In this document: positions 1 to 41,766 of the stretch, piece by piece
Layout of the letters: each line of letters opens with the position of its first letter
Position numbering within the stretch: position 1 is the stretch's first letter
Assembly (NCBI GenBank): GCA_043813215.1
Contig: JBDRLH010000018.1
Coordinates: 1-41,878, forward strand
Direction: 5' to 3'
DNA from: Parcubacteria group bacterium
Lineage (GTDB): Bacteria > Patescibacteriota > Minisyncoccia > Minisyncoccales > JAQTPW01
Length of the DNA stretch: 41,878 nucleotides
The notes under the pieces: model-generated
What the model was told of the DNA's origin: nothing
Databases searched by the model: none
The model's input: only the letters and a program-made list of their open reading frames with translations
Position numbers and translations under genes: made by a program

Positions 1-106
1 GAAAGTCGCCATTTATGGCTAATACGTAAAGTCATAAATGGGCGGTCGACACGACAGAGTTATAAAAAATTATCAATTAAATTAAACTTACAATTTAAAA
101 CACAAA

Positions 107-3934: not shown

Positions 3935-4000
3935 ACTTAGTCTTCCTTGTGGCCCTGATTGCCTCCTCGGCATGATGGGTTAGGCTAAGTAAAAGTAAAC

Positions 4001-5929: not shown

Positions 5930-6004
5930 AAAATCAGAAAGAATAGCTACAAATTTTTTCGTTAAATAATTAAAAACGGGGCATAAGCCTTGTTTCTATC
6001 CAAT

Positions 6005-6250
6005 ATGCCAGAAATTAAGCCAAACGAAATTTATACAACCAAAGAAACCCAGGATTTTTTGAAAGTAAGCACGAGCACTATTAAACGTCTGTTAAAAAGC
6101 GGCATAATCAAGGCTTACAAGGTCGGAGGGACTTACCGAATTTGGGGTAGCGACATTTTGATATTAATTTCTCCGAAGATCGAGTCAAAGGTCTACAAAA
6201 TTTATGATAAACTTAGGTCAAAAACCAGAAAAACCATTGAAAAATGGTAA
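6005..6250 (+). CDS. Small excisionase/MerR-superfamily helix-turn-helix DNA-binding protein (HTH_17-like)
   Basis: IYTTKETQDFLKVSTSTIKRLLKSGIIKAYKVGGTYRIWGSDI matches the excisionase-type HTH pattern (helix-turn-helix, then K-x-G-x-x-x-R-I wing). The start could also be TTG 5990. Confidence 0.55.
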   Translation: MPEIKPNEIYTTKETQDFLKVSTSTIKRLLKSGIIKAYKVGGTYRIWGSDILILISPKIESKVYKIYDKLRSKTRKTIEKW

Positions 6251-6347
6251 TTTTTTGTTAAATATTTTTTGGATATTTTGTCCTTGTGGCGAAGCACCCA
6301 CCAGATAATTTTTTCACTCATTCCATAAAAGGATTCGTTCAAAAATT

Positions 6348-6836
6348 ATGAAAAGAAAAAATAAAAAAATTATTGTTGCTACGAGCGGCGGGTTTGACCC
6401 CGTCCATATCGGGCACACAAGATTATTCCAGGAAGCCAAATCCCTTGGCGACGAATTGGTGGTTATTTTGAATAATGACAATTGGCTAAAACAAAAGAAA
6501 GGCTTCGTGTTTATGTCGGAAAAAGAGCGGAAAGAAATTATAGAGGCATTCAAACCCGTTGATAGAGTCATCGTCACTAGGCATTACTCAAACACTAAAG
6601 ACATGAGCATATGCGCCGAATTGGCCGATTTAAAGCCGAACATTTTCGCTAAAGGCGGCGACAGGGACAAAAAGGACGCCGACAACAAATCTTCTTCTCT
6701 CAATCCGGAGCAGGCGCTATGCCAAAGATTAGGCATTAAAATAGTTTTTAACGTCGGACGGGGCGGAAAAATTCAATCAAGCTCTTGGTTGACAAAGAGA
6801 TTTCCCGAATCAATAAAGCGATTTTTTGAAATATGA
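6348..6836 (+). CDS. HIGH-motif nucleotidyltransferase (cytidylyl/adenylyltransferase-like; TagD / RfaE domain II family)
   Basis: ATSGGFDPVHIGHTRLFQEAKSLGDELVVIL carries the literal HIGH signature and the G-x-FD-x-x-H-x-GH pattern of the CTP_transf_like family. Length is 162 aa. Substrate is unknown. Confidence 0.6.
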   Translation: MKRKNKKIIVATSGGFDPVHIGHTRLFQEAKSLGDELVVILNNDNWLKQKKGFVFMSEKERKEIIEAFKPVDRVIVTRHYSNTKDMSICAELADLKPNIFAKGGDRDKKDADNKSSSLNPEQALCQRLGIKIVFNVGRGGKIQSSSWLTKRFPESIKRFFEI

Positions 6837-7600
6837 TCGTATCAAAAAATGAATCCGTCGGCATACTGGGTTTTGGTGAAATAGGCCAAGCCATGGCGGA
6901 ATTTTATGATTCGGCCGATGCACCACGGATAAAAATTAAGGATTTAAACAGAGATGACGACTTAAGGGACGTAAAAATTCTTCATGTTTGTATTCCTTGG
7001 AGCGAAAAATTCGTGCAGATAGTGAAAAATGAAATTAAAAAAGCAAAACCGGCTTTGACAATTATACATTCCACTGTGGCGCCTGGGACAACCCTTCGGC
7101 TCGCTCAGGGCAAGCAAAAAACAATGGTGGTTCATAGTCCAGTAAGAGGGGTTCACCCGCATCTTTTTGAGGGGATTAAAACTTTTGTAAAATATATCGG
7201 CACCGATAATAAAGAGGCGGGAAAATTAGCCCAAAAGCATTTAGAAAATTTAGGCATTAAAACAAAGGTTTTTATGCCGGCCGCCACCACTGAAATTGGA
7301 AAACTCCTGGATACCGCCTATTACGGACTTTGCATCGCCTGGCACGGAGAAATGAAGAAAATTTGCGATAAATTAGGGATAAATTTTGAAGAAGCAGCTT
7401 CTGATTTTAATCAGACCTATAACGAGGGATACAAAAAATTAAGAAAAACCAACGTTCTGCGTCCAGTTTTATATCCGCCAGAAAACGGCATCGGCGGCCA
7501 TTGCGTGATATCTAATGCTGGGATTCTTAAAAAATATTTTAAAAGCGAAGCCTTGAATTTGATTTTAAAATATAAACCCAAAAATAAATCTAGGAGATAA
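6833..7600 (+). CDS. Short NAD-binding dehydrogenase related to the UDP-glucose/GDP-mannose/UDP-ManNAc dehydrogenase family
   Basis: ATGA start/stop overlap with the upstream gene. Rossmann motif GFGEIG near the N-terminus. GIGGHCV resembles the catalytic-Cys GGHC motif of WecC/Cap5O-type sugar dehydrogenases. At 255 aa it has no room for the usual C-terminal domain. Confidence 0.4.
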
Positions 7601-7601
7601 T

Positions 7602-8663
7602 ATGAATAACGAAAAAAGGAAAAAAGCTTTTATCACGGGAATCGGCGGACAAGACGCTTCTTATTTGGCGGAGTTGCTTTTACATAAAGGCTATGAAGTC
7701 CATGGTACAACCAGGTGGGACAGCGTTTTTATTAATAAAAGAATAGAGCATCTTTTCCAGGATCCCCATATTCATGGGGCGCGCCTTTTCCCTCATTACA
7801 GCGATATCACAGACACGGGAAACCTTGAAAGGCTGATTAACCAAATTCAGCCCGATGAGGTTTATCATCTGGCGGCCATGTCTCATGTCAGAGTGAGCTT
7901 TGATATGCCCGAATATACCGCCAACACCGATGCCCTGGGAACTTTGCGGGTTTTGGAAGCGATCAAGAATTCCGGGCTTCCCATAAAGTTCTATATGGCG
8001 GCGAGCTCAGAAATGTTTGGCAGTTCTCAACCCCCCCAGAATGAAAACACTCCCTTTTATCCAAGAAGTCCGTACGCTTGCGCCAAAGCGTTTTCATATT
8101 ACATTACCAGAATGTACAGGGAGGCCTACGGGATTTTTGCCGTCAACGGCATATTGTTTAATCACGAAAGTCCGCGCCGGGGAGAAACTTTTGTCACAAG
8201 GAAAATTACCAGGGCAGCGGCCAGAATAAAAGCCGGTCTTGATAAAAAAATTTATTTAGGCAATCTGGACGCCAAAAGAGATTGGGGCTTTGCCCCCGAA
8301 TACGTTGAGGCGATGTGGCTTATGCTTCAAAAGGATAAATCCGATGATTTCGTCATAGCCACCGGCGAAGCTCACTCCGTCAGAGAACTTTTGGAAGAAG
8401 CTTTTTTATATAGCGGCTTGGGCGACTGGCAGAAATACGTCGAAATTGATCCCAGGTATTTCAGGCCCGCCGAAGTGGAAATTTTGATCGGCAGTGCCCA
8501 AAAAGCCAAGGAAAAAATCGGCTGGGCGGCTAAGGTTAAATTTAAAGATTTGGTACGAATAATGGTCGATGCCGATTTTAGGGCGACAGGGTTGGAAGCG
8601 CCGGGAGAAGGAGATAAAATTTTAAAAGAAAAATTTCCCGATAAATGGTGGGGGATTGATTAA
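7602..8663 (+). CDS. gmd: GDP-mannose 4,6-dehydratase
   Basis: [29 protein letters not shown]-terminus, [28 protein letters not shown] (YxxxK), and [17 protein letters not shown] are all hallmark Gmd motifs. AGGAG RBS upstream. Length 353 aa. Confidence 0.9.
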
Positions 8664-8670
8664 AAATTAA

Positions 8671-9138
8671 ATGATTAGCAAAAATCTATATAAAAAAATT
8701 CAAGAAGTAATTCCGATTTGTTGCGTAGATGTCGTTATTAAAAATGATAAAAAGGAACTCTTGTTATTAAAAAGAAAAAATGAGCCGGCAAAGGGTGAGT
8801 GGTGGATTGTCGGAGGACGGATAAAAAAAGGAGAAACGCTCAGGAAGGCTGTTTTTCGCAAGGTAAAAGAAGAGACCGGATTAAACGTTGTTTTAAAGGG
8901 AATTTTAGGAGTCGGCCCCACTGTTTTCAAAAAAGGAATTTTTGGACAAAGCGTTCATACAATCAATATTGTTTTTTTAACTCTGGCAAAAAGGAAAGAT
9001 AAAATAAGGCTAGATTCCCAAAGCAGTGATTATAAATGGTTTAAAAAAATCAATCGGAACTGGCATCCTCATCTTCAAAAATTCTTAAAATTAGGCCTTC
9101 AAGCAAAGCGAAATTTGTGTTTTGGCCGAATAGGCTAA
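8671..9138 (+). CDS. Nudix hydrolase, GDP-mannose mannosyl hydrolase-like (Gmm/NudD/WcaH type)
   Basis: Nudix box GGRIKKGETLRKAVFRKVKEETGL (G-x5-E-x7-R-x-U-x-EE-x-G-U). Its position directly after gmd matches colanic-acid-type gmd-fcl-gmm clusters. Confidence 0.6.
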   Translation: MISKNLYKKIQEVIPICCVDVVIKNDKKELLLLKRKNEPAKGEWWIVGGRIKKGETLRKAVFRKVKEETGLNVVLKGILGVGPTVFKKGIFGQSVHTINIVFLTLAKRKDKIRLDSQSSDYKWFKKINRNWHPHLQKFLKLGLQAKRNLCFGRIG

Positions 9139-9160
9139 TTTCAAGTTTGCCCTTACTTTC

Positions 9161-10441
9161 ATGGAATATTATAAAAACATAAAAAAATGCCGGATTTGCG
9201 GCTCCAAAGACCTGATCGAAGTTATTCATATTGCCCCTCAATATCTGTCGCCAACCTTTGTAAGGACCAATGAGAAAAACGAACTATCAAAGATTAAAGT
9301 GCCTCTAACCTTGACCTTTTGTGACTGCAAAAGAAACCTCGACGGCTGCGGGCTTCTTCAATTAAAAGAAACCGTTAATCCGGATCTTTTATATAAGAAT
9401 TATTTTTACAGAACTGCCGTGAGTAGTACTATGTGCGAGGATTTACACGAGGTTGTAGAGGATGTTTTAAAGCATGTAAAATTGAATGACGGTGATTATG
9501 TTATTGATATCGGCGCCAATGACTGCACAATGCTGGGCTATTTTCCGTCTTCCTTGAATCGCATAGGGGTGGAACCCGCTAAAAATATTGATTTGAGCAG
9601 CCTCGACCCGTCAATAAAATTTATTAATGACTATTTTTCTAAAAAGACCGTTGAGAATGCTATCAGAAAGGGCTCTGTCAGAGCAATAACCTGTTGCGCA
9701 ATGTTTTATGATCTTGATGACCCAAACAGTTTTGTTTCTGATATTAAATCAATTCTGGCTCCGGACGGGATATGGTGCATTCAGCTCAGTTATTTGCCGC
9801 TTATGCTGAAAAATATGAATTTCTATGATATCTGTAATGAACATCTGGAATATTATTCACTTCATACATTAAAAAATCTGATGAAGCGTCACAGCCTTTC
9901 CATTTTTGACGCCTCGACTAATAATGTTAACGGCGGGAGTATCCGAGTATTTATCAGCCATACTGGAAACAATTATAAACCATCTGTCAATCTGGAGAGA
10001 CTTTATATGGAGGAAGAAAGAATGAACCTCTATGATGCAGCAACTTACAAAGATTTTTATAAAAAAATTTTAGATCTGAAGAATAAAGTCAATAATGTCA
10101 TAACCAAAGAGATAAACAAAGGAAACCTGGTGCTCGGTTTGGGAGCTTCGACCAAAGGGAACGTATTGTTGCAGCTATTCGGCATTACAAAAGAAATGCT
10201 TCCTTATATAAGCGAGAGAAACCCGGAAAAAGTTGGACTGAGAACCTTGGGAACCGATATAGGGCTTATTTCAGAAGAGGACGCCAGAAAACTAAACCCC
10301 AGTTATATGTTGGTGCTCCCCTGGTATTTTAAAAAAGAAATCGTAAAACGCGAAGTAGATTATTTGCGGCATGGCGGAAAACTACTGTTTCCGATGCCAT
10401 ATCCTCATATTGTTGACAAAAACGGAGAAACAAATTTATAA
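9161..10441 (+). CDS. NDP-hexose C-methyltransferase (TylCIII/TcaB9-like; Zn-ribbon + class I SAM MT + C-methyltransferase C-terminal domain), copy 1
   Basis: N-terminal CRICGS...C-x-C...C-G zinc-binding module, [18 protein letters not shown]-binding [19 protein letters not shown], and C-terminal [11 protein letters not shown]...[10 protein letters not shown] 426-aa paralogue lies at 37651-38931. Confidence 0.7.
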
Positions 10442-10454
10442 AAAACTTATAATT

Positions 10455-11414
10455 ATGGACTCTTTATCAAAAAATTATTTAACAAACAAAAAGATTTTAG
10501 TTACCGGCGGCGCAGGCTTTTTAGGAAATTTCATTATTAAAAAACTTTCAGAGCGCGGAGTGCCAAAAGAAAATATTTTCATACCTTTATTTGAAAATTA
10601 TGATTTAAGAAAAATGGAAAACTGCCTGAAAGTTGTTGAAAATCAAGATATTGTAATTCATTTGGCCGCTAAAGTCGGAGGCATTGAATATAGCAGCAAG
10701 AATCCCGGGCAGATGTTTTATGACACTGCCATCATAGGCATCCAATTAATGGAAGCCGCCAGGCAGGCAAATGTAAAAAAGTTCGTTGCCATTGGATCAG
10801 TTTGCGCCTATCCGAAATTTACTCCGGTACCCTTTAAAGAAGAAGATCTTTGGTCGGGCTACCCCGAGGAAACCAATGCCGCCTACGGGATAGCCAAAAG
10901 AGCGCTTCTAGCTCAAGCCCAAGCTTATCGAAACCAATACGGATTTAATGCCGTTTATCTTATATTGGTAAATCTATACGGTCCGGGTGATAATTTTGAC
11001 CCTCAATCTTCCCACGTTATTCCGGCTTTGATCAAAAAAGTTTATGAGGCCAAAAGCCAAGGAAAAAATTATATCAAAGTTTGGGGTTCAGGCAAGGCAA
11101 CTAGAGAATTCCTGTATGCCGAAGACGCCGCAGAGGGCATCTTGCTGGCTACTGAAAAATATAACAAATCAGAGCCGGTTAATTTGGGCACAGGCAAAGA
11201 AATTCCCATTAAAGAATTGGCTGAATTAATTTGCAGAATAATGGATTTTGGAGGCGAGATTCGTTGGGATGCCGCAAAACCAGACGGCCAGCCCAGACGT
11301 TGTTTGGATGTTTCTAAAGCTGAAAAAGAATTCGGCTTTAAAGCTGCCATGCCATTCAAAGAAGGTCTGAAAAAAATCATTGATTGTTATGTGGAAAACC
11401 ATGAAACTAAATAA
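10455..11414 (+). CDS. GDP-4-keto-6-deoxy-mannose epimerase/reductase family (GDP-L-fucose synthase Fcl / GDP-L-colitose synthase ColC-like), copy 1
   Basis: The ORF track begins at 10371, but ATG 10455 (MDSLSK...) follows the upstream stop. [11 protein letters not shown] Rossmann motif, GSVCAYP (Cys aligned with E. coli GMER C109, nt 10803-10805), YGIAK (YxxxK), NLYGPGDNF...SSHVIPALI (His aligned with H179), and [14 protein letters not shown]. Confidence 0.8.
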
Positions 11415-12204
11415 CTCCGAATTTTTTAAATTGGAGATTATGATAACCGATTTCTGCAATTTAGATTGCCGACTATGTTCTCAGGGAATTCCCTTAATGA
11501 AAAATAAAAAAATTATATCTTTGGATGATTTAAAGAGAATGAGCAAGCTTGTGGAGCCGTTTGAATTCCACACCGTCAAGATTTGCGGGGGCGAGCCGAC
11601 ATCTCATCCTCAATTCGAAAAGATTTGCGACAATCTCAAGAGACTATTTCCTGCCGATTACTATTATTTGGCAACAAACGGTTTTTGGTTAGAGAAATTT
11701 ATCAATCAGATAAAAGTATTTAATATTATTGAATTGAGTCACTATCCTGGGAAAAATGATGAGATATTCGAGAAGTTAGCAAAACTGAAGATCCCCAATT
11801 TGGCGGCCATAAGAAAAAAAGAATATCAAGAGATAATGGATGTTTATCAAGAAAATAATTTAAACAAAACCGATATTTATAAAAGATGTCCCTATAAAGA
11901 AATACAAATTGTTCAAGACAGGATATATACTTGCTGTAATATATTTGGCCAGGCCATGCGCCAGAACATTGATCTTGATAAAATTAGCGTCCTTTTTGAT
12001 GAAAATTGGCGGCAAAACCTATCCAAAATTGACATAGAGCCTTATTGCCAGCGCTGTTTTATAGATGTGCCCGGGCCTGCCAGAGTTGCTCTATATGAGA
12101 TCGAAACAGGAATCGGGCGCTGGCTGAAAAAGAATTTTAAACCACTAAGTAAACTCATCCGCTGGTTAAAAATTCAAAAGCGGCAAATTAAAAGCAATAA
12201 TTAA
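11401..12204 (+). CDS. Small radical SAM enzyme with a C-terminal Cys-rich (twitch-like) region
   Basis: CNLDCRLC (CX3CX2C, nt 11455-11478), then GGEP, and C-terminal ...RIYTCCN... and CQRCF. These parallel the DGEVRMCC / CARCE motifs of the two larger paralogues. Start taken at ATG 11401, which overlaps the fcl-like stop; the track start 11380 is also possible. Confidence 0.65.
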
Positions 12205-12221
12205 AATCATAAGAAATTAAT

Positions 12222-13535
12222 ATGGCAGACATTAAAGTTAAAATCCAAAAAGAAATAAATAATCTGGTCAAAAAATATTTTTCTTTACCCGGGGAAAATT
12301 TTATTTCAAAAAAAATAAAAATTCCTTTGAATATCCCTACTTTTGGCTGGCAGGAAGTCAATGAAGCCATAGACTCTTTGCTTTCAACCTACGTTACCAT
12401 GAATGAAAAGGTTTATAGGTTTGAAGATATGTTCGCAAAATATCTAGGAGCAAAGCATGCCGTAATGGTGAATTCAGGATCTAGTGCAAACCTCATAGCT
12501 TTGTCTGTTTTAAGCAACCCGACTGTTAAAAACCGGATAAAGCCGGGTGATGAAATAATAACTCCGGCCGTAACCTGGTCAACTACCGTTTTTCCGATTA
12601 TTAACGTCGGGGCAAAGCCCGTTTTAGTAGATGTAAATTTAAATGATTTTAGTATAAATCCCGAATTAATTGAAAAGGCAATTACTAAAAAAACAAAAGC
12701 CATAATGCCTGTTCACCTTCTGGGAAATCCAGCCGACATGACAACTATTATGAAAATTGCCAAAAAACACGATTTATTCGTCATAGAAGACGCTTGCGAA
12801 GCCCATGGAGCACAACATTATGGAAAAAAGGTTGGAACTTTTGGTGATATGAGCACTTTTTCGTTTTTCTTTTCCCATCATATCAGCACAATAGAAGGAG
12901 GCATGGTGGTGACTAATAATGATGAATATGCTGAATTGGCAAAAATGCTTAGGGCACACGGCTGGATTAGGGAATTAAAAGATAAAGGAAAAATCGCCAA
13001 AAAATATAAAAAAATACACAAAAACTATCTGTTCGTAAACATTGGCTACAATCTCAGGCCAACCGCCCTGCAGGGAGCTTTTGGGATTCATCAGATCGGA
13101 AAGCTGGAAAATATTATAAAAATTAGGAGAAAAAATGCTGATTTTTGGTCCGATAAACTTTCAGAATATTCAGATTATCTGATGTCGCCCCAAAAAAAAG
13201 AAAAAAAAGGCGAAAGAAGGGTTTGGTTTGGTTACCCAATTATTATTAAAGAAAGAGCGGGATTTAATCGAAAAGAGCTAACCGATTTTTTAGAAAGCAA
13301 AGGTATCGAAACTCGGCCGATTATGGCTGGTAACTTGGCTGAGCAACCAGCCATGAAACTATTTAATTATCGGATAGCTAGCAGACTGGATAATTCCGAA
13401 ATCATTATGAAGAAAGCTTTCTTTTTTGGCAATCACCAGGGCGTCAGGAAAATAGAAAAGGAATATTTGGTGAGATGTTTTGTTCAGTTTTTGAAGCAGA
13501 AAAGTAAATTACGAAATAGATATGAGAATAAATAG
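12222..13535 (+). CDS. PLP/PMP-dependent NDP-4-keto-6-deoxyhexose 3-dehydratase (ColD / E1 RfbH-DdhC type) of the DegT/DnrJ/EryC1 family
   Basis: NSGSSANLIAL, VIEDACEAHG and FSFFFSHHISTIEGGMVV. Aligned with PseC in this same window (LSFHPVKTITTGEGGMVL), the Schiff-base Lys is replaced by His (H219/H220, nt 12876-12881). That substitution is the signature of the 3-dehydratase subgroup. Length 437 aa with only two Cys. Confidence 0.65.
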   Translation: MADIKVKIQKEINNLVKKYFSLPGENFISKKIKIPLNIPTFGWQEVNEAIDSLLSTYVTMNEKVYRFEDMFAKYLGAKHAVMVNSGSSANLIALSVLSNPTVKNRIKPGDEIITPAVTWSTTVFPIINVGAKPVLVDVNLNDFSINPELIEKAITKKTKAIMPVHLLGNPADMTTIMKIAKKHDLFVIEDACEAHGAQHYGKKVGTFGDMSTFSFFFSHHISTIEGGMVVTNNDEYAELAKMLRAHGWIRELKDKGKIAKKYKKIHKNYLFVNIGYNLRPTALQGAFGIHQIGKLENIIKIRRKNADFWSDKLSEYSDYLMSPQKKEKKGERRVWFGYPIIIKERAGFNRKELTDFLESKGIETRPIMAGNLAEQPAMKLFNYRIASRLDNSEIIMKKAFFFGNHQGVRKIEKEYLVRCFVQFLKQKSKLRNRYENK

Positions 13536-15012
13536 TTTCACCAATCTTCGAGCTCTTTTGCTTGATAATAAAACGACCAAGCAAACGATTTTTAAAAATA
13601 CTTTTTGGGTTGCTTTAGCGTCCGCAATTGGGGATTTTTCTAAATTTATCTTAATAATATACGTTACCAGAATTTTAGGGGCAACCGAGTTTGGAAAATT
13701 TGCTTTTGCCCTATCTTTTATTTCGTTGTTTTTTATATTTAATAATTTCGGTCTTTCTAGCATAGTGACGCGCGAATTTTCTCGCGGAGAGGAAAAGGAA
13801 AAAGATTTTTCTTCAATTATATCTTTAAGGATTCTGTTGGGTTTGGGTGCTACCGCCTTGATTCTTATAGGCTCTTTTTTTATTACTCCGGATCCAATTA
13901 TTAGAAAGGTTATATGGGTTTTGGCTGTTTTTAGTCAAATAAGTAATTTTTCTTTGATAATTTATGCTTTTTTTGGAGCTCGGCAGAAAATGGAATATGA
14001 ATCTTGGAGTATAATTTTAGAGGCAGCCACGGTAACCGCCGTTGGATTTTTCGTGATTTTTAATTTCCCGTCAATTTTAAATTTAAGTTATAGCTATTTG
14101 TTGTCCGTGGTATTTAGCTTGATTCTTGCTTTAACTCTTCTTCATTTTAAAGTTTTTCGTCTCAGAATTTCTTGGAACGTATCTGTTTGGAAAAAATATT
14201 TAGCAATGTCTTGGCCTCTTGGTTTAATCAGTTTATTTTCTATAATTTACATTTCTATCGATTCGGTAATGCTGGGATATTTGGGTAAAATTACAGAGAA
14301 CGGTTGGTATAGCGCTGCTTACAAAATGGCTCTTTTTACCACGATGCCGATGGGCATAATCGCTACAAGTTTTTTTCCGGTTTTGAGCAAATTTTTTGAA
14401 GAATCAAAAGAAAAATTTCAAACCGTTTGGGATTATTATATGGAAATAATAATTTCATTGGCAATTCCTCTTGTAGCTGGCGGCATACTGCTTGCCCCCA
14501 GGATTATTGATTTTCTTTACGGCAAGAATTTTTACCCCTCAGTTTTAGCGTTCCAGATTTTAATGATTATGGCCGGTATTATTTTCTTCTCAAAACCGTT
14601 TACTCAAATTTTAGTCGCTTCAAATCAGCAAAAAAAAGTTTTTTGGATTACGCTCATGGGAGCATTGACTAATATTGTTTTGAATTTAATCTTAATCCCG
14701 AGATATAGCTTATACGGCGCGGCAGTAGCCACCGTGATTACTTATTTTTTAATGTTATTTTTACTTTTTTCCTTTATTTTAAAATTTACTTCGCTTCAGT
14801 TATTGAATTTAAGGTTATTTTTTAGTTTTATTATCATTAGTTTTTCAACCGCCGTAATGTCTTTTACGATATCCCGTCCTCAAATTTATAATCTTAACAT
14901 TTTTTTTTCCATAATAATCGGAACCACAGTTTATTTTATTGCGCTTTATTTTTTGGAAAAAATCTTAAGACGCTTAGGATTAAAGACGTTTAATTTATAT
15001 GAATCAAGGTAA
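13522..15012 (+). CDS. Wzx-type oligosaccharide flippase (MOP/polysaccharide biosynthesis protein family)
   Basis: 496 aa, hydrophobic throughout with roughly 12-14 helix-length segments. The N-terminal TIFKNTFWVALASAIG...ILIIYVTRILG pattern is typical of Wzx/RfbX. It overlaps both neighbours by 14 nt. Confidence 0.65.
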   Translation: MRINSFTNLRALLLDNKTTKQTIFKNTFWVALASAIGDFSKFILIIYVTRILGATEFGKFAFALSFISLFFIFNNFGLSSIVTREFSRGEEKEKDFSSIISLRILLGLGATALILIGSFFITPDPIIRKVIWVLAVFSQISNFSLIIYAFFGARQKMEYESWSIILEAATVTAVGFFVIFNFPSILNLSYSYLLSVVFSLILALTLLHFKVFRLRISWNVSVWKKYLAMSWPLGLISLFSIIYISIDSVMLGYLGKITENGWYSAAYKMALFTTMPMGIIATSFFPVLSKFFEESKEKFQTVWDYYMEIIISLAIPLVAGGILLAPRIIDFLYGKNFYPSVLAFQILMIMAGIIFFSKPFTQILVASNQQKKVFWITLMGALTNIVLNLILIPRYSLYGAAVATVITYFLMLFLLFSFILKFTSLQLLNLRLFFSFIIISFSTAVMSFTISRPQIYNLNIFFSIIIGTTVYFIALYFLEKILRRLGLKTFNLYESR

Positions 15013-15967
15013 GGAAACAATTTTGGTTACAGGAGGTGCGGGCTTTATAGGATCTCATCTTTCAAAAAAGCTGATGGATTTGGGATATCAAATTGTCATA
15101 GTCGATAATTTCAATTCGTATTACGATCCTTCACTCAAAGAAAGAAGGATTTCAGAATTATTAAAAGGCTACAACTTCAAACTCTACAGAGAGGACATAA
15201 AGAATGCAAGAGCTTTAAGAAAAATTTTTTTGGAAAATAAAATAGACAAAATTTGTCATTTAGCCGCCCAGGCCGGCGTGAGATATTCGCTTATTGATCC
15301 TTTTATTTACGAAGAGTCAAACGTAAGAGGAACTTTAAATCTATTGGAACTGGCTAGAGAATTTAGAATAAAAGGATTTATTTTCGCTTCCAGCTCTTCT
15401 GTTTACGGCGCTAGCAAAAAAATACCTTTTAAAGAGAGCGATCCGATAGACAAACCTATTTCTGTTTATGCGGCAACAAAAAAAGCGGGAGAAGCCCTTG
15501 TTTTTAGTTATCATCATTTGTACAAAATTTCTGCGACAGTTCTTCGTTTTTTCAGCGTTTACGGCCCTTTTTGGCGGCCAGATTTGGCTTTGTGCAAATT
15601 TGCAACCCTGATTCATAACGATAAACCAATCGAGGTTTACAACTTCGGAAAAATGCAGAGAGACTTCACTTATATAGACGACATAGTAAACGGGATAGTG
15701 GTCGCCGTCAAAAAAAATTATCCTTGGGGAATATTCAATTTAGGAAGAGGCAAAGCTGTCCAACTTACCAAATTCATAACTTTAATTGAAAAAGAGATGG
15801 GAAAAAAGGCGTCAAAAAAAATGTTGCCGATGCAGCCTGGAGACATCGGTAAGGTTTGGTCAGATATTTCCAGCGCGAAGAAAAAATTGAATTATCGTCC
15901 GAAAACCGGAATCGCCGGAGGCGTTAAAAAAACAATAGATTGGTATAAAGATTACCTCAAAATTTAA
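14999..15967 (+). CDS. NAD-dependent SDR epimerase, UDP-glucuronate 4-epimerase-like
   Basis: [32 protein letters not shown] (characteristic of the GlcA/GalA 4-epimerase subgroup), ASSSSVYG, YAATKKAGE (YxxxK), RFFSVYGP. Confidence 0.65.
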   Translation: MNQGKETILVTGGAGFIGSHLSKKLMDLGYQIVIVDNFNSYYDPSLKERRISELLKGYNFKLYREDIKNARALRKIFLENKIDKICHLAAQAGVRYSLIDPFIYEESNVRGTLNLLELAREFRIKGFIFASSSSVYGASKKIPFKESDPIDKPISVYAATKKAGEALVFSYHHLYKISATVLRFFSVYGPFWRPDLALCKFATLIHNDKPIEVYNFGKMQRDFTYIDDIVNGIVVAVKKNYPWGIFNLGRGKAVQLTKFITLIEKEMGKKASKKMLPMQPGDIGKVWSDISSAKKKLNYRPKTGIAGGVKKTIDWYKDYLKI

Positions 15968-15971
15968 AAAT

Positions 15972-28697: not shown

Positions 28698-28699
28698 AA

Positions 28700-29848: not shown

Positions 29849-29891
29849 AGATTTAATTATCTGGACAACAGACACGCAAACTGATAAAATT

Positions 29892-32166: not shown

Positions 32167-32217
32167 CACAAAGAGTTCTGTATTTATTCAACAGCGGACT
32201 ATAAAAATATAAATGAA

Positions 32218-33577: not shown

Positions 33578-33581
33578 TTTT

Positions 33582-34034: not shown

Positions 34035-34046
34035 AAAATAAAAAAA

Positions 34047-35798: not shown

Positions 35799-36650
35799 AT
35801 GCTAACTATTGCCACTGTCCCCAAGCCGTTTAAAAATCCGCATATAAACATTATTCAGCGGAATGCCATTCAAAGCTGGTTGCTTCTTGAACCCCGGCCA
35901 CAAGTAATTTTATTCGGCAATGATGAGGGAATAGCCGAAGCGGCGAAAGAGTTTGGGGTTTTGCATGTTCCAGAAATTGAAAATGAGTTTGGCATTCCTC
36001 TTCTAAACCGCGTATACAGTTTGGCTCAAAAGGCATCATCCGGTCGGTTTGTCGCTCATATCAACACCGATATTATTTTAATGAGCGATTTTATGAAAGC
36101 TCTCGGCTCAATTAAGTTCGCTTCGTTTTTGATGACCGGCAGGAGATGGGATATAAACATTAAAGAACCAATTCAATTTAAGGAGACTGATTGGGAGAAA
36201 AGATTTCGTCAAAGGCTTATCTTAGAGGGGAAATTACACGGACTAGCTGGCGTGGAATATTTTGTTTTCCCTCGGAATCTGGATCTTAATCTGCCGCCTT
36301 TTGTTGCCGGTCGTCCTGGATATGACAACTGGCTTGTTTATAAAGCCAGATCTAGCAATATACCGGTCATTGATGCAAGCAAGGTTGTAATAGCTGCGCA
36401 TCAAAACCATGATTACAGTCATCGTGCGGGAGGAGAAAAGGGTATTTTGAAAAAAGCAGAAGGTAAACGAAATATTAAATTAGCCGGTGGTTTCGCTAAA
36501 ATGTTAACTCTCCGAGACGCTGACTGGGTTCTTACTCCACAAGGTGTAAAAAAACCAGAATTCCCGAGGAGAATCTTAAGCAAATTATCATTGTTTTATC
36601 CCTGGAGAATTTTATTATCGATTAAACGGAAAATACAAAATACCATCTGA
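35799..36650 (+). CDS. Hypothetical protein, possibly a GT-A-like nucleotide-sugar transferase
   Basis: 283-aa ORF tightly packed between GT genes. HINTDIILMSDF may be a DxD-like segment. No family was recognised. Confidence 0.3.
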   Translation: MLTIATVPKPFKNPHINIIQRNAIQSWLLLEPRPQVILFGNDEGIAEAAKEFGVLHVPEIENEFGIPLLNRVYSLAQKASSGRFVAHINTDIILMSDFMKALGSIKFASFLMTGRRWDINIKEPIQFKETDWEKRFRQRLILEGKLHGLAGVEYFVFPRNLDLNLPPFVAGRPGYDNWLVYKARSSNIPVIDASKVVIAAHQNHDYSHRAGGEKGILKKAEGKRNIKLAGGFAKMLTLRDADWVLTPQGVKKPEFPRRILSKLSLFYPWRILLSIKRKIQNTI

Positions 36651-36710: not shown

Positions 36711-37646
36711 ATGATCAAGTTAAAAGATAAAAAAATTTTGCTTACGGGCGGGTCGGGCTTTATTGGAAAACACATTATTAATAATTTGGTTCAAAAACGC
36801 AACGTACCGCGAGAAAATATTTTTGTTCCCACCATCAAGGAATATGATTTGAGAGAATTGAAAAATTGCCAGAAAGTGGTTGGAAATCAAGACATTGTCA
36901 TCCATCTGGCTGCCGTAACCGGAAATATTGAACTGCACAGACTGCATCCCGGCAGAATTTTTTACGATAATATTATAATGGGTATCCAGCTTGTGGAGGC
37001 AGCCAGGATTGCCGGAATCGAGAAGTTTATAGGAATAGGCAGTGTCACTGCTTATCCTGAAAAAGCCACATCACCTTTTAAGGAAGAGCAGTTCTGGGAT
37101 GGGTATCCGGCAAAAATTCATGCCCCTTATGGTTTTGCCAAAAAAATGTTGTTGGTTCAGGGGCAGGCTTATAGAGAAGAATATGGTTTCAATGTCATTC
37201 ATTTATTATTGACCAGTGTTTATGGGCCGGGAACAAATCCCCAAAGCGGCTATGTAATTTCTTCAATAATTGAGAAAATTCAGAAGGCAAAAAAAGAGGG
37301 CAGGAATTTTATTGAGGTCTGGGGAACAGGAAAGCCAATAAGGGATTTTCTTTATGTTGAGGACGCGGCCGAGGGGATTATTTTGGCAACAGAAAAATAC
37401 GATAGACTCGAACCGATGAATATCGGATCAGGCATAGAGATTTCAACTAAAAATTTGATTAATTTGATTTGCGAATTAATGGATTTCAAAGGCGAAATTC
37501 GTTGGGATGCCACAAAACCTGATGGCCAGTTAAAAAGAATGATAGATGTTTCCAAGGCTAAAAATGAACTCGGCTTTACCGCTTCCACGTCTCTTGAGGT
37601 AGGATTAAAGAAAACCATTGAATGGCATTTGAAAAATTTAAAATAA
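36711..37646 (+). CDS. Fcl/GMER-family SDR, copy 2, lacking the epimerase Cys/His dyad (predicted reductase-only or altered chemistry)
   Basis: ILLTGGSGFIG, YGFAK (YxxxK), KPDGQLKRMIDVSK. GSVTAYP has Thr113 (nt 37047-37049) where copy 1 and E. coli GMER have Cys. GPGTNPQSGYVISSI has Tyr181 (nt 37251-37253) in place of His. Confidence 0.7.
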   Translation: MIKLKDKKILLTGGSGFIGKHIINNLVQKRNVPRENIFVPTIKEYDLRELKNCQKVVGNQDIVIHLAAVTGNIELHRLHPGRIFYDNIIMGIQLVEAARIAGIEKFIGIGSVTAYPEKATSPFKEEQFWDGYPAKIHAPYGFAKKMLLVQGQAYREEYGFNVIHLLLTSVYGPGTNPQSGYVISSIIEKIQKAKKEGRNFIEVWGTGKPIRDFLYVEDAAEGIILATEKYDRLEPMNIGSGIEISTKNLINLICELMDFKGEIRWDATKPDGQLKRMIDVSKAKNELGFTASTSLEVGLKKTIEWHLKNLK

Positions 37647-37650
37647 AATT

Positions 37651-38931
37651 ATGGCAACGAATATTTCCAAAACAATAAAAAAGTGTCGGGTCTGTGGTTC
37701 AAAAAATATAATTTCCCTTCTTTTTTTAGGACGTCTTCATATTTCAAATTTTATTGATAATAAAGAAGGCAATCATAAAATAAAAAAGATAGGCAGGCAA
37801 CCTCTTGAATTGGTAATGTGCAATCCTGATTTAAAGGGTTGCGGATTGATTCAATTAAAGCATACGTGCTCACCAGAACTACTTTATAGGAATTATTGGT
37901 ATCGTTCAGGCGTTAATCGGAGCATGACAGAGGCCCTTTCAGACATCGCTCAAAAAGCAGAAAAAATAGCAAAACCTAGAAGCGGTGATTATATTATTGA
38001 TATCGGTTCTAACGATGCGACTCTTTTCTGTTTCTATAAAACTAAAAATCTTAATCTTGTTGGCTTTGAACCGGCTAGAAATCTTATGTCTTACGCTAAA
38101 AAGAATTGTCCCGCAGGCAAATATATTAATGATTTCTTCAGTTTCAAAGCTTGGCAAAAAAAATTTTTTGGCAAAAAAGCCAAAATTATAACAGCTATCG
38201 CCATGTTTTATGATTTAAACAATCCCAATGAATTTGTTTCCGATATAGTTAAATGTTTGGATAAAAAAGGAGTGTTTATTATCCAGATGAGTTATTTGCC
38301 GTCAATGCTCCAGCAGAATGCCTTTGATAATATTTGTCACGAACATTTGGAATATTATTCGCTCACCTCCCTGAATAATCTGTTAAAAAGACACGGATTA
38401 GAAGTCTTTGATGCAGAATTAAACGATATCAACGGCGGAAGTTTCCGTATCTACATTCAGTACAAGGGATATAGGCCGATAAATAATCGTGTTCATAAAT
38501 TAGAGAAACTAGAAGAGAGATTAAAGCTCTCCAGTAAAAAAACCTATAAAATCTTTGCCTCAAGAATTTTCGCTCTAAGAAAAAAAATAAATAATTTCAT
38601 AAAAAACGAAACTCGGCTGGGCAAACGAGTTTATATTTATGGTGCTTCGACCAAGGGCAATACCCTTTTGCAATTCTTTAATTTAAACAAGGATTTAATA
38701 AAAGCAGCCGCTGACCGAAATCTCGACAAATGGGGTAAAAAAACAGTAGGCACTTTAATTCCTATTATTTCTGAAGAGCAGGCCCGAAAAGAGCGTCCGG
38801 ATTACTTTCTGATTCTTCCCTGGCATTTTTTGAAAGAATTTATTCAACGCGAAAAAGACTATCTTAGGTCAGGAGGAAAATTTATTGTTCCTCTGCCGCA
38901 ATTTAAAATTATCAGCAAGAAAGATTTATGA
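37651..38931 (+). CDS. NDP-hexose C-methyltransferase (TylCIII/TcaB9-like), copy 2
   Basis: CRVCGS...C...GCG zinc module, [54 protein letters not shown]. 426 aa, the same length as copy 1. Confidence 0.7.
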   Translation: MATNISKTIKKCRVCGSKNIISLLFLGRLHISNFIDNKEGNHKIKKIGRQPLELVMCNPDLKGCGLIQLKHTCSPELLYRNYWYRSGVNRSMTEALSDIAQKAEKIAKPRSGDYIIDIGSNDATLFCFYKTKNLNLVGFEPARNLMSYAKKNCPAGKYINDFFSFKAWQKKFFGKKAKIITAIAMFYDLNNPNEFVSDIVKCLDKKGVFIIQMSYLPSMLQQNAFDNICHEHLEYYSLTSLNNLLKRHGLEVFDAELNDINGGSFRIYIQYKGYRPINNRVHKLEKLEERLKLSSKKTYKIFASRIFALRKKINNFIKNETRLGKRVYIYGASTKGNTLLQFFNLNKDLIKAAADRNLDKWGKKTVGTLIPIISEEQARKERPDYFLILPWHFLKEFIQREKDYLRSGGKFIVPLPQFKIISKKDL

Positions 38932-40487
38932 AAGCTGTAATTATTATTCCAACCTATAATGAAAAAGAAAATATTGCCCAGATCGTTTCAGAAATTTTTG
39001 AATTATTGCCGGGAATTTCTATTTTGGTCGTAGACGACAATTCTCCCGATGGCACAGCTGATATTGTTAAAAATTTGCAAAAAGACTTTCTGAATTTATC
39101 ACTATTGTTAAGAAATAAAAAAGAGGGTTTGGGCAGGGCATATATAAATGCATTTGAAGAAATATTGAAAGACAAAAATGTCAAAAAAATTGTGATGATG
39201 GATGCTGATTTTTCTCATAATCCCAAATATTTGCCAGAAATATTAAAAACAGCTGATAATTTTGATGTTGTTATCGGCTCCCGATATATAAACGGAGGAA
39301 AAACGGAGGGTTGGGAACTGTGGCGGAGAATTTTAAGCAGGGGAGCCAATTTTTATTGTCAGCTCGTAACCCATCTTCCGATTTTCGATTATACCTCCGG
39401 TTTTAATGTGATTAATACCAATTTTTTAAGAAAAATTGATTTTTCGAAAATCAATATTTCAGGATACGCCTTTTTAATAGAGCTTAAGTATTTATTGTGG
39501 AAAGAAGGTGCTTCTTTAAAAGAAGTTCCGATAGTATTAAAAAATCGTTTCGGGGGAGAATCAAAGTTTTCGGGCCACATCATCAATGAGGGAATTTTAG
39601 CTCCTTGGAAGATGATTTTCAAAAAAATAAATAAAGAGTGTCCCTTATGTAATAAAAAAACTGCTGTTTTTTTTACCCAGAAAAAATCTTATACTTTTTA
39701 CAAATGCAAAGATTGTGGCTTGATTTTTATTTTCCCAATGCCCGAAAATCATTTAAAAATATATTCCCAGGATTATTTTACTGGTGCTAAAAAAGGTTTT
39801 GGATATGTGGACTACGAGGTTGATAAAAAAGCGATGTCCGCCACCCTCAATTCTTATTTAGATAAAATAGAAAAATTCATATCAAAAAATGGCAAGCTCC
39901 TGGATGTCGGCGCTGCCACCGGTTTTTTTATGGAGTTGGCAGAAAAAAGGGGATGGAAGGTTCAGGGATTAGAAATTTCCGAGTACGCCGCCAAAAAAGC
40001 CAGAGAAAAAGGTTTGGATGTGGCAACTGGAACCTTAGAAAACGCTAATTTTAAGGAAGATTATTTTAATTTGATTACTTTTTGGGATGTTGTTGAACAT
40101 TTGTCGGGCCCCAAATCGACATTGTCATTAGCTTACAAAATTTTAGAAAAAGATGGGATAATAGCCATCAATACTCCGGACTCGGGAAGTTTTATTGCCA
40201 AGTTTCTTAACAAAGGCTGGCACCTATTGGTTCCGCCAGAACATTTATTTTTATTTAATTCAAAAAATCTCAGTAGCGTATTAAAAGAAATTGGTTTTGA
40301 AATATTATTTGTCGGCAAAATTGGGAAAAAATTTACCTTGCAATATGCAATTCAAATATTAGCTAATAAACAAAAATTCTTTGTTTTCGATTGGCTGGCA
40401 AATTTTTTCAGAAATAACTTTTTAGGTAAATTGATTATTCCGTTTAGTCTGGGAGATAATTTTTTCGTTTTAGGATATAAAAAATAA
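38928..40487 (+). CDS. Fusion protein: Dpm1/GtrB-like polyprenol-phosphate glycosyltransferase (GT2) + Zn-ribbon + class I SAM methyltransferase
   Basis: aa 1-230: VIIIPTYNEKENI, ILVVDDNSPDGT, MMDADFSHNPKYLP. From aa 238 (nt ~39636): CPLC...CKDCG, LLDVGAATGFFM, FNLITFWDVVEHL. ATGA overlap with the upstream gene. Confidence 0.7.
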   Translation: MKAVIIIPTYNEKENIAQIVSEIFELLPGISILVVDDNSPDGTADIVKNLQKDFLNLSLLLRNKKEGLGRAYINAFEEILKDKNVKKIVMMDADFSHNPKYLPEILKTADNFDVVIGSRYINGGKTEGWELWRRILSRGANFYCQLVTHLPIFDYTSGFNVINTNFLRKIDFSKINISGYAFLIELKYLLWKEGASLKEVPIVLKNRFGGESKFSGHIINEGILAPWKMIFKKINKECPLCNKKTAVFFTQKKSYTFYKCKDCGLIFIFPMPENHLKIYSQDYFTGAKKGFGYVDYEVDKKAMSATLNSYLDKIEKFISKNGKLLDVGAATGFFMELAEKRGWKVQGLEISEYAAKKAREKGLDVATGTLENANFKEDYFNLITFWDVVEHLSGPKSTLSLAYKILEKDGIIAINTPDSGSFIAKFLNKGWHLLVPPEHLFLFNSKNLSSVLKEIGFEILFVGKIGKKFTLQYAIQILANKQKFFVFDWLANFFRNNFLGKLIIPFSLGDNFFVLGYKK

Positions 40488-40494
40488 CCCTTCC

Positions 40495-41766
40495 ATGATA
40501 AATATTTCGAAAATTTTTATAAAAATAGATAATTTATTTAAGAACAAAAAGATTTTACTCCTGATTTGTCTTCTTCTTCTATCTTTTCAATTATGCTACA
40601 GTTTTCTTTATCCTACTCACGGACCTAGGGGCAAGGCCTGGCTGTCTCTCCCTGACTTGATTTCCCATGAAAAATCTCCGCTTGATGCTTCCGAAGGGCT
40701 GCTAATTACTAAAGCCTACGGACTTTTAAGTAATTATTATATCAATGCCGACGGGGGGCAATATCTGCTTTTAGCTAATAATTTCCCCAATTATTATATC
40801 GGAAACAATCCCGTTATTTTAGACAGGCCGTTTTATTCTTTTTTAATTGCCGTTATCGCTTTTTTGCCACGCTTATTCTTTGATTCTTATGCAACGCTTT
40901 TTGCTTCGGCAATTTTTCTTAATTTTATTCTGGGTTTCTTTTCGGTTGTATTATTTTACTATCTTTGTGAAAAATTAATCAGTTCCCGAGTGGCTCTCCT
41001 GTCGTCCTTACTGTTAATTTTCTCTCCATATTTTCATTTTTGGCTAGTCCAACCCGTGCCGAACATATTTACCATTTTTATAATTGTAGCCACTCTTGTT
41101 CTCTTGGAAAAATATATTAAAAATCCATCAAGTCTTAAGCTTATTGTTTTCTCTTTGATTATCGGCGTGTTTATGTTGGGGAAAATGATTTTTGCCATGC
41201 CGATTTTTATTCTTTTCTCTGCTTTTTATTTCAAGAGATACAAGGAGGGAATAATATTTTTAATAATTCACTTGATTCCTCTGATTTTTTGGTATTTATT
41301 TGTTGTAACAAAGCTCGGAATACCTTATTACATCAATGAAGCAGATTACGGTGTGGGCGTATGGTTGCTTGATGCTTTTCATTCTCCGTGGTATAAAACT
41401 TTTGAAATCTTCCTTAGTGTTTTGCCCCAGTTTGTCTATGTAGTAATTTATGCGTTTTTATTGATACCGGTGATTTTTAGCATCTTCGGTTTCAAAAAAC
41501 TGATTTTTAAAATCGGGCACTTTTTTGCTTTGAATTTTATTCTTTCTTTCTTGATATTATTATTTATAATGAATCTTTATTCCCCGCGTTATGGATTTTT
41601 TCTTTATCCCATAGTTTATCCTTCTGCCGTTTTGGGGATAGACCAAATAGCGGAATTTTTTAAAAAATATAAAAATTGGTATTCCGCAGTTTTTTATTTA
41701 GTGGTATTTATATTTTTAATAGTCATTTCTAATGCCGATATTTATAAAATTTTTCCCTACGGATAA
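40495..41766 (+). CDS. Polytopic integral membrane protein, candidate GT-C-type glycosyltransferase or glycan polymerase/ligase
   Basis: 423 aa, hydrophobic throughout with roughly 10-12 helix-length segments. The first loop contains acidic PLDASEG. It immediately follows the polyprenol-phosphate-sugar synthase fusion. No family was recognised with confidence. Confidence 0.35.
   Translation: MINISKIFIKIDNLFKNKKILLLICLLLLSFQLCYSFLYPTHGPRGKAWLSLPDLISHEKSPLDASEGLLITKAYGLLSNYYINADGGQYLLLANNFPNYYIGNNPVILDRPFYSFLIAVIAFLPRLFFDSYATLFASAIFLNFILGFFSVVLFYYLCEKLISSRVALLSSLLLIFSPYFHFWLVQPVPNIFTIFIIVATLVLLEKYIKNPSSLKLIVFSLIIGVFMLGKMIFAMPIFILFSAFYFKRYKEGIIFLIIHLIPLIFWYLFVVTKLGIPYYINEADYGVGVWLLDAFHSPWYKTFEIFLSVLPQFVYVVIYAFLLIPVIFSIFGFKKLIFKIGHFFALNFILSFLILLFIMNLYSPRYGFFLYPIVYPSAVLGIDQIAEFFKKYKNWYSAVFYLVVFIFLIVISNADIYKIFPYG

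Follow-up and report, generated by a model that had tools for sequence, protein, structure and literature searches.

The contig JBDRLH010000018.1 of a Parcubacteria group bacterium (assembly GCA_043813215.1), analysed here over its full 41,878 nucleotides (nt) and called the window, carries on the plus strand at 7602-13535 six genes whose products probably make a deoxysugar from GDP-mannose by a C-methylated version of the colitose route. A preliminary description of this DNA had listed the genes as gmd, Nudix hydrolase, sugar C-methyltransferase, Fcl-like epimerase-reductase, small radical S-adenosylmethionine (SAM) enzyme and ColD-type dehydratase. The six open reading frames (ORFs) were all found at the coordinates claimed, and their assignments and order were upheld by profile, PDB and motif evidence. 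The arrangement is not a chance juxtaposition, because the same gene set was found again in independent loci; the combination is not unique to the window, and the cassette is wider than had been supposed. The predicted outcome, a C-methylated dideoxyhexose carried on GDP, is still the best reading that we infer from co-inheritance and residue signatures, and GDP-3,6-dideoxy-3-C-methylhexose would be its most likely form.

In the proposed route, Gmd would convert GDP-D-mannose to GDP-4-keto-6-deoxy-D-mannose, a step predicted from an equivalog-level assignment. The ColD-type enzyme would take off the 3-hydroxyl group with pyridoxamine phosphate (PMP), recycled with glutamate and requiring neither an Fe-S cluster nor an E3-type reductase, to give GDP-4-keto-3,6-dideoxymannose, as its Ser-His pair, its 44% identity to ColD and its two Cys residues suggest. 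The methyltransferase (MT1) would transfer the methyl group of SAM to the carbon beside the 4-keto group, most probably C3, acting either on the 3-deoxy intermediate or ahead of the dehydratase; this order is left either way because PMP-driven elimination needs no hydrogen at C3. The Fcl-like enzyme (Fcl1) would then epimerise the sugar and reduce C4, in such a way that GDP-3,6-dideoxy-3-C-methyl-L-hexose ('3-C-methylcolitose') would be formed. The Nudix protein would act as a Gmm-like GDP-sugar hydrolase, and a Wzx flippase and downstream glycosyltransferases would put the sugar into a surface glycan.

The dehydratase gene (12222-13535, plus strand, 437 amino acids, aa) encodes a ColD-type PMP-dependent GDP-4-keto-6-deoxymannose 3-dehydratase, which scores 314 bits against ColD (2gms) versus 257 bits against E1 (3bcx) and shares 44% identity with the E. 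coli ColD across 369 aligned positions. Its FSHHIST motif pairs with YSHHIAT of ColD, in such a way that Ser followed by His (His188 of ColD) occupies the position of the Schiff-base Lys, and the His substitution was seen again in a multiple alignment against Lys-type DegT proteins. This Lys-to-His change is the hallmark of sugar 3-dehydratases, among which E1 and SpnQ have a [2Fe-2S] motif of four Cys and depend on a reductase, whereas ColD has neither the motif nor the reductase and recycles PMP with glutamate (PMC8987622). The window protein has just two Cys in its 437 aa and thus lacks the four-Cys motif of E1 and SpnQ. Since the Ser-His pair, the two Cys and the lack of a reductase gene match the defining features given in that work, the enzyme was assigned to the ColD type. 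The possibility that it could be an ordinary aminotransferase was discarded on the Ser-His at the Asn/x-Lys position, the identity to ColD and the missing four-Cys motif. An E1/E3-type mechanism was also considered and rejected, with two Cys in the dehydratase and no reductase gene in the window; the scanned window ORFs contained no RmlA/RmlB, no CDP-glucose genes and no E3-like or ferredoxin-reductase-type gene.

MT1 (9161-10441, plus strand) is a TylCIII/TcaB9-type SAM-dependent sugar C-methyltransferase with the three Pfam domains of this family, Methyltransf_13 (PF08421, Zn-binding N-terminal domain, 45 bits), Methyltransf_23 (PF13489, class I SAM domain, 43 bits) and Methyltransf_14 (PF08484, C-terminal domain, 141 bits). 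It aligns over its full length with MtmC (4rv9, 196 bits) and TcaB9 (127 bits), to which it is 29% and 24% identical, respectively, and is 56-81% identical to clade members from several phyla and from viral contigs. A database search gave more than 7,000 matches, and all 120 listed were at least 60% identical, so that MT1 appears as a member of a large clade, which is well conserved and accompanies GDP-sugar genes. The plasmid and phage collections yielded no clade member, their best matches being 40% and 38% identical.

The substrate pocket was compared in an alignment of 115 clade members with MtmC and TcaB9. In the METHYLTRANSFERASE pocket, Tyr76, Glu224 and His225 of TcaB9 have equivalents that do not vary in MT1, in the 115 clade members or in MT2, a second methyltransferase of the window that is described below. 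By contrast, the sugar-pocket residue His181 (TcaB9 numbering) is replaced by Asp in all 115 members and Tyr222 by Cys in 114 of them, both changes being present also in MT1 and MT2. We take these five residues to have the roles assigned to them by the mutagenesis of TcaB9; a clade with the catalytic residues kept and the sugar pocket altered throughout would fit a different class of substrate.

The cassette was sampled from the MT1 side in 21 reference-genome loci (Patescibacteria, Xanthobacteraceae and other Alphaproteobacteria, Planctomycetota and DPANN archaea), to which further metagenomic contexts and 12 IMG/VR viral contigs were added (fetched loci are labelled L). In about 40 fetched loci the methyltransferase adjoins a Fcl-like short-chain dehydrogenase/reductase (SDR), and it usually lies also near Gmd and a DegT-family protein of the His type; those loci whose genes were read showed no genes for dTDP or CDP sugars. 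This linkage places the methyltransferase outside a dTDP or CDP context, in agreement with the GDP-sugar operon originally proposed. The 27 non-viral loci with a methyltransferase at least 55% identical include 26 with a Fcl-like SDR and 15 with Gmd (at least 45% identical) within 5 kb. Every DegT-family gene near the methyltransferase in a fetched flank has His at the catalytic position, with the exception of the marine L034/L035, where a 218-aa Lys-type DegT fragment lies 5.5 kb upstream. One annotated neighbourhood, from Azospirillum, is ambiguous, showing a GDP-type SDR together with rfbCBDA. The gene order is not fixed: L008 and L010/L011 have gmd, Nudix, DegT(His), methyltransferase, Fcl-like and radical SAM, and L040 has radical SAM, a GT-A glycosyltransferase, gmd, Nudix, DegT(His), methyltransferase and Fcl-like, both orders being unlike that of the window. 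The linkage of the methyltransferase clade with Fcl-like, Gmd and His-type DegT proteins across these loci supports that the core cassette is real and widespread.

In several of these loci the slot of the dehydratase is filled by a different protein. A second His-type DegT is encoded between the Nudix and methyltransferase genes in L008 (3956-5053), L010/L011 (L010 6663-7763), L013 (8874-9995), L026 (49-1056) and L040 (8896-9996). It is nearer to perosamine-synthase-type aminotransferases (7b0d, around 200 bits; 3bn1, 183-195 bits) than to ColD (115-122 bits), and shows 'FSFFVSHSITTGEGG' in place of the '...xK...' of the aminotransferases. The ColD orthologue and this protein would thus fill the same step by non-orthologous replacement, and the same Lys-to-His change in both suggests a specific requirement of the pathway for a PMP enzyme of the His type. 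The perosamine-synthase-like form would be a second lineage of such sugar enzymes, apparently of independent origin. L003, L020 and the start of L040 show yet another His-type variant ('AH'), the third.

The Alphaproteobacteria carry the cassette as compact islands next to smc, formed by a Fcl-like gene, a small family 2 glycosyltransferase (GT2) resembling AglJ and dolichol-phosphate (Dol-P) hexose transferases, the methyltransferase and a ColD-like gene. In L036 (7519-9573) an N-terminal GT2 similar to polyprenyl-phosphate sugar synthases is fused to the methyltransferase in a frame confirmed as uninterrupted. Such GT2-methyltransferase fusions were also observed in the alphaproteobacterial proteins P0127, P0129, P0131 and P0135, with GT2 and methyltransferase as adjacent genes in sister loci. 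The marine branch of the methyltransferase clade is found on predicted viral contigs: among those from IMG/VR (L041-L052, 17-190 kb), 11 of 12 have the methyltransferase, the Fcl-like SDR and Gmd in that order, and the three DegT proteins found in their fetched flanks (L045, L050 and L051) are all of the His type; these may be viral glycan-modification genes.

Gmd (7602-8663, plus strand) scores 489 bits against the GDP-mannose 4,6-dehydratase equivalog TIGR01472, whose cut-off is 415, and 380-430 bits against the solved plant, E. coli and human enzymes, with no heptose dehydratase match past 1e-40. The Nudix gene (8671-9138, plus strand; Pfam NUDIX, 63.7 bits) has as top NCBIfam match the GDP-mannose mannosyl hydrolase subfamily, with 65 bits, under the cut-off of 146; it is kept after gmd in L008, L010/L011 and L040, and its product is probably a Gmm-like housekeeping or regulatory enzyme of GDP-sugars. 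Fcl1 (ORF 10371-11414, plus strand, probable start at 10455) belongs to the Fcl family of SDRs, resembling GDP-L-fucose synthase and ColC as a putative epimerase and 4-reductase. It scores 228 bits against 7ll6 and 182 bits against E. coli GDP-L-fucose synthase (GFS), and keeps Ser107, Cys109, Tyr136, Lys140 and His179 of the latter, in such a way that the Cys/His dyad is intact.

Extending the reading of the window to the whole clade is more tentative, and less likely than not to hold. The MT1 clade may mark an undescribed GDP-sugar pathway of Patescibacteria, Alphaproteobacteria, Planctomycetota, DPANN archaea and marine viral contigs, where a PMP enzyme, either ColD-type or of a convergently evolved His type, and a dedicated methyltransferase with a remodelled pocket would produce a branched 3-deoxy-3-C-methyl 6-deoxyhexose, of a sugar class for which we found no natural example. 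In one Patescibacteria-like sub-lineage, the BtrN/SpeY-like radical SAM enzyme would modify this GDP-sugar further.

Several observations weigh against a C-methylated colitose-type product. To our knowledge, all characterised members of the methyltransferase family use dTDP-sugars with an O or N substituent at C3, and both the nucleotide specificity and the methylated position proposed for MT1 come from gene context and family. Fcl1 stays at 281 bits against the GDP-L-fucose synthase model NF047922, under its cut-off of 500, and is a ColC-like candidate by its membership of the Fcl family, as compared with 7ll6 and E. coli GFS. The gmd gene is absent from the fetched flank in about a third of the loci, manB and manC, for the supply of GDP-mannose, are absent from the window, and homologues of the radical SAM protein (44-61% identity) are found in NeuB/PseB/PseC clusters without the cassette. 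The predicted product is also without chemical precedent, because the literature searched yielded no 3,6-dideoxy-3-C-methylhexose from nature, a weak negative given that many papers in subscription journals lay outside the search. In the same literature, with subscription journals poorly covered, no paper combined a sugar 3-C-methyltransferase with a colitose or 3-dehydratase route.

One competing explanation is that Gmd, the ColD-type enzyme and the Fcl/ColC-type enzyme make ordinary GDP-L-colitose, with MT1 and the radical SAM enzyme serving another sugar, such as the nonulosonate or a further NDP-sugar, and lying in the operon by mosaic assembly. The window is a sugar-gene mosaic of around 35 kb with a PseB/PseC/NeuB module, CMP-transferases and further radical SAM and methyltransferase genes, radical SAM homologues occur in NeuB clusters elsewhere, and in marine loci the methyltransferase directly follows a NeuB-cupin gene, all of which would suit such an assembly. 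However, even islands of three to four genes without other sugar genes (L014, L036 and L038) combine a methyltransferase of this clade with a Fcl-like SDR and a DegT of the His type, the methyltransferase immediately adjoins the Fcl-like and Gmd genes on viral contigs, and the chemistry of its family requires a 4-keto sugar, which Gmd and ColD would supply; we consider this explanation unlikely. There is also little probability that MT1 methylates GDP-4-keto-6-deoxymannose itself at C3, giving a virenose-like 6-deoxy-3-C-methylhexose that keeps the 3-hydroxyl, with the His-type DegT working in a separate branch, to plain colitose, or not as a 3-deoxygenating enzyme. The almost constant co-inheritance of a His-type DegT with the methyltransferase, maintained even through non-orthologous replacement, is hard to fit with separate branches, and the changes of His181 to Asp and Tyr222 to Cys fit a different environment at C3. 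This must be set against the characterised TylCIII-type enzymes, which are all known to form a tertiary alcohol or amine at C3 (PMC3539893), against the example of SpnQ, a His-type enzyme from which other activities are known (PMC8987622), and against the presence of two methyltransferase/SDR pairs and a single dehydratase in the window, where at least one branch may skip the dehydratase. A GDP-D-glycero-D-manno-heptose substrate, as in the Campylobacter 3,6-dideoxyheptose pathways, would lead to a C-methyl dideoxyheptose. An RfaE-domain-II-like gene opens the window operon, and SIS/GmhA-like, nucleoside triphosphate (NTP)-transferase-HAD and PfkB-CTP_transf (HldE-like) genes lie near the cassette of L040, but the Gmd score, above the equivalog cut-off and with the solved GDP-mannose dehydratases as its matches, and the lack of GmhA, HddA, GmhB and HddC genes in the window make this highly improbable.

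The place of the radical SAM enzyme is a separate question. Its claimed role as a pathway gene was borne out in part: the gene lies in the operon and is linked to the cassette in four related loci only (the window, L008/L009, L010/L011 and L040), but it is an accessory of one Patescibacteria-like sub-lineage and not part of the conserved core. This, together with its homologues in NeuB clusters, makes its role in the pathway a putative one. That it performs an integral step, such as the oxidation or epimerisation of a carbinol of the GDP-C-methyl-dideoxyhexose, so that the product of the Candidate Phyla Radiation (CPR) would differ from that of the core cassette, has a little less than an even chance. 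Across four non-redundant loci the linkage outlasts three changes of arrangement around the gene, in the window and in L010 the reading frame begins 14 nt before Fcl1 ends, and the fold is nearest to the sugar and cyclitol dehydrogenases SpeY and BtrN. Against an integral step, the gene is missing from L013 and from all non-CPR cassette loci, five other members of the family lie in NeuB or unrelated contexts, and the organisms with the four linked loci are related, so that shared ancestry may explain the linkage. The L001/L002, L003/L004 and L007 homologues lie in clusters of the NeuB/PseB/PseC type with no gmd, Nudix, DegT, methyltransferase or Fcl genes of the cassette, and those of L005/L006 and L012 in still other contexts.

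The protein itself (probable start 11401, end 12204, plus strand; Pfam PF04055) is a small radical SAM enzyme, probably of the twitch type, with a CNLDCRLC motif. Its C19, C23 and C26 (CX3CX2C) and a 'GGEPT' motif are kept across 17 homologues, and the C-terminal C163, C178, C216 and C219 are invariant, in the region of a possible auxiliary [4Fe-4S] cluster, where the predicted local distance difference test (pLDDT) score of the AlphaFold2 (AF2) model ranges from 59 to 90 (78.8 for the model as a whole). BtrN and SpeY are twitch radical SAM dehydrogenases acting on sugar or cyclitol carbinols. The top Foldseek matches to the model are SpeY (7wzv, E 6e-11) and BtrN (4m7t, E 3e-7), with a template modelling (TM) score of around 0.56 and 14-16% identity, and phmmer matched the protein to SpeY with an E value of 1.8e-6, a likeness which we read from the model as resemblance and not membership. 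Most likely, the enzyme would abstract hydrogen from a carbinol carbon of a sugar, leading to its oxidation or epimerisation, and the odds are roughly even between the GDP-sugar of this pathway and the nonulosonate of the same gene cluster as its substrate. The family is small, with 17 matches in a word-indexed search and 46 clusters at E<=1e-30 in a set of 1.84 billion representatives. The gene after the radical SAM gene in L040 (6436-7314) has no Pfam model and has a homologue in the window at 35799-36650 (53% identity over 282 aa); this adjacency of radical SAM and GT-A genes in L040 was confirmed as continuous frames. Three further proteins, P0153 (929 aa), P0154 (1979 aa) and P0155 (563 aa), were observed to join a small radical SAM domain to GT-A-like and other domains, and could be true multidomain glycan-tailoring enzymes or read-through calls due to an alternative genetic code, for which reason their weight as Rosetta-stone evidence was taken with caution. 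The identification of P0154 with a 1979-aa gene at the end of L034 was rejected, as the two have no similarity.

The cassette lies within a longer packed unit, in which eleven consecutive genes (6348-16988) are separated by -14 to +22 nt. At its head, a gene of the CTP_transf_like type (6348..6836, plus strand; PF01467, 58.6 bits) encodes a small cytidylyl/adenylyl-transferase-like protein, whose best NCBIfam match is RfaE domain II with 69 bits, far under its cut-off. This gene shares 4 nt with the following one (6833..7600, plus strand), which encodes a truncated NDP-sugar-dehydrogenase-like protein of 255 aa (Pfam UDPG_MGDP_dh central domain, 27 bits; top PDB match 4r16, E 3.9e-8). Homologues of the latter, 66-68% identical, precede gmd in L008 and L010/L011, and throughout the Patescibacteria-like sub-lineage the truncated gene was observed always immediately before gmd. 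The synteny upstream of gmd between the window (5990-7600) and L010 (GCA_011050035.1, 2303-5153) comprises an HTH_17 excisionase-like gene, the CTP_transf_like gene and the truncated dehydrogenase-like gene. On the other side, a Wzx-type flippase gene (13522..15012, plus strand; Pfam Polysacc_synt, 118.5 bits) overlaps the dehydratase gene by 14 nt, follows the cassette in L008 and L010/L011 too (62-65% identity), and on this annotation ties the cassette to the export of a lipid-linked glycan. A promoter/terminator scan detected no excess of terminator-like sites in the packed unit, and was uninformative.

The window consists, from around 6.3 kb up to its end, of a single unbroken glycan cluster on the plus strand, whose closest homologues are from uncultured bacteria, some named Candidatus Pacebacteria, Kaiserbacteria or Patescibacteria by their sources. 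The G+C content is 47-49% over positions 1-4000 and then falls abruptly to 28-43% over 4001-41878; the first 4 kb encodes a protein of 1275 aa, whose BNR-associated and peptidoglycan-binding matches are weak.

A second SDR and C-methyltransferase module at 36711-38931, omitted from the preliminary description, lies near the end of the cluster. SDR2 (36711..37646, plus strand; NF047922, 204 bits) is Fcl-like and 57% identical to Fcl1, but its epimerase dyad is changed from Cys to Thr and from His to Tyr ('IGSVTAYPE' and 'QSGYVISS' versus 'IGSVCAYPK' and 'QSSHVIPA' in Fcl1), and it is probably a reductase only. MT2 (37651..38931, plus strand; Pfam Methyltransf_13/23/14) is also of the TylCIII/TcaB9 type, is 46% identical to MT1 and 38-43% identical to members of the MT1 clade, and falls in a different clade. 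As the window holds one Gmd and one His-type DegT, both methyltransferase/SDR pairs may share GDP-4-keto intermediates, and we infer that Fcl1 and MT1 would form an epimerised sugar and SDR2 and MT2 a non-epimerised one. The module is preceded by the glycosyltransferase of GT-A fold mentioned above (35799..36650, plus strand; AF2 pLDDT of 90.1, with GT-A glycosyltransferases as all of its top Foldseek matches), and is followed by a fusion of GT2 with a SAM methyltransferase (38928..40487, plus strand; Pfam Glycos_transf_2, 97 bits, and Methyltransf_23, 84 bits) and by a PMT_2/ArnT-like glycosyltransferase of the GT-C type (40495..41766, plus strand; Pfam PMT_2, 29.8 bits).

The glycan cluster also contains SDR epimerases, CMP-sugar transferases, a KDO8P-synthase-like gene, AsnB, several methyltransferases and glycosyltransferases. 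A nonulosonic-acid module at 27717-35105, with a PseB-like and a Lys-type PseC-like protein, a B12-binding radical SAM gene (29892-31421), a CMP-transferase, a formyltransferase-like protein, a PIG-L deacetylase, a GNAT protein and NeuB, suggests that the cluster also builds a sugar of the pseudaminic/legionaminic type. Two paralogous radical SAM/SPASM genes lie at 15972-16988 and 22964-23992. Similar radical SAM genes were observed in L003, L007, L008, L010 and L040, the Patescibacteria-like glycan clusters being unusually rich in them. Some of the fetched loci also have split transketolase-like gene pairs, encoding N- and C-terminal halves (L040 1861-3625 and 19782-21108, and the ends of the L001/L003 loci), which adjoin His-type DegT and SDR genes and hint at a two-carbon branched-chain sugar chemistry.

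If the proposed pathway is true, it would be a new nucleotide-sugar pathway leading to a new branched deoxysugar, and MT1 would be the first TylCIII-type C-methyltransferase acting on a GDP-sugar, and on a carbon without a heteroatom. As the cassette is common in environmental genomes and present on viral contigs too, its sugar could act widely as a surface determinant, possibly carried by ultra-small bacteria, soil Alphaproteobacteria and marine microbes, with a bearing on phage recognition and host interaction. Enzymology would gain three defined targets from it, a C-methyltransferase specific for GDP-sugars, the second lineage of His-type PMP enzymes, which resembles perosamine synthases, and a small new family of twitch radical SAM enzymes.

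The closest characterised system is the GDP-L-colitose pathway of E. coli O55, Yersinia pseudotuberculosis and Vibrio cholerae O139, which shares with the window Gmd, a ColD-type Ser-His dehydratase without Fe-S motif, a Fcl-family enzyme with the Cys/His dyad and a nearby Gmm-like Nudix. The window differs in having, after the Nudix gene and before the Fcl-like one, a TylCIII-type methyltransferase that is inherited together with the dehydratase in several phyla, an inserted gene for the twitch-like radical SAM enzyme and an extra C-methyl branch on the predicted product, and the sister loci differ further by the perosamine-synthase-like His-type enzyme in the place of ColD. The co-inherited methyltransferase argues against unbranched GDP-L-colitose as the likely end product. 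The preliminary description knew of no characterised pathway of this kind, and none was found in the literature searched, but a GDP/TylCIII route had been proposed in silico for the virenose of Coxiella burnetii, with Gmd, the TylCIII-like CBU_0691 (reported as 42-44% identical to TylCIII, EryBIII and AviG1) and a GDP-4-keto-6-deoxymannose epimerase/reductase (PMC3539893, PMC3204966). That proposal has in common with the window the TylCIII-type C-methylation of a GDP-4-keto-6-deoxyhexose and the finishing by a Fcl-type enzyme; it differs in that it has no 3-dehydratase and a product that keeps the 3-hydroxyl, and MT1 stands in a clade of its own, with 24-29% identity to the solved dTDP enzymes. 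GDP-evalose, considered as another precedent, proved unsupported, the paper found placing 2-deoxy-D-evalose on a dTDP route.

The sugar 3-C-methyltransferases of dTDP pathways (TylC3, TcaB9, KijD1 and MtmC) have the same three-domain architecture and the Tyr76/Glu224/His225 equivalents, and MT1 presumably shares their chemistry, an enolate attack on SAM beside the 4-keto group; it differs in its Asp/Cys pocket, its GDP-mannose gene context and a likely substrate without heteroatom at C3. The CDP-3,6-dideoxyhexose enzyme E1/DdhC resembles the window dehydratase as a His-type PMP enzyme of the same length class that aligns over the full length, whereas the window has no four-Cys motif, no E3-like or CDP-glucose genes and a higher score with ColD. 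Finally, BtrN (butirosin) and SpeY (spectinomycin) share with the radical SAM protein of the window a size of around 260 aa, the CX3CX2C motif and a context of carbohydrate biosynthesis, and the four C-terminal Cys of the window protein would suit one auxiliary [4Fe-4S] cluster, but this protein is encoded in glycan clusters of uncultured bacteria and not in aminoglycoside or aminocyclitol clusters.

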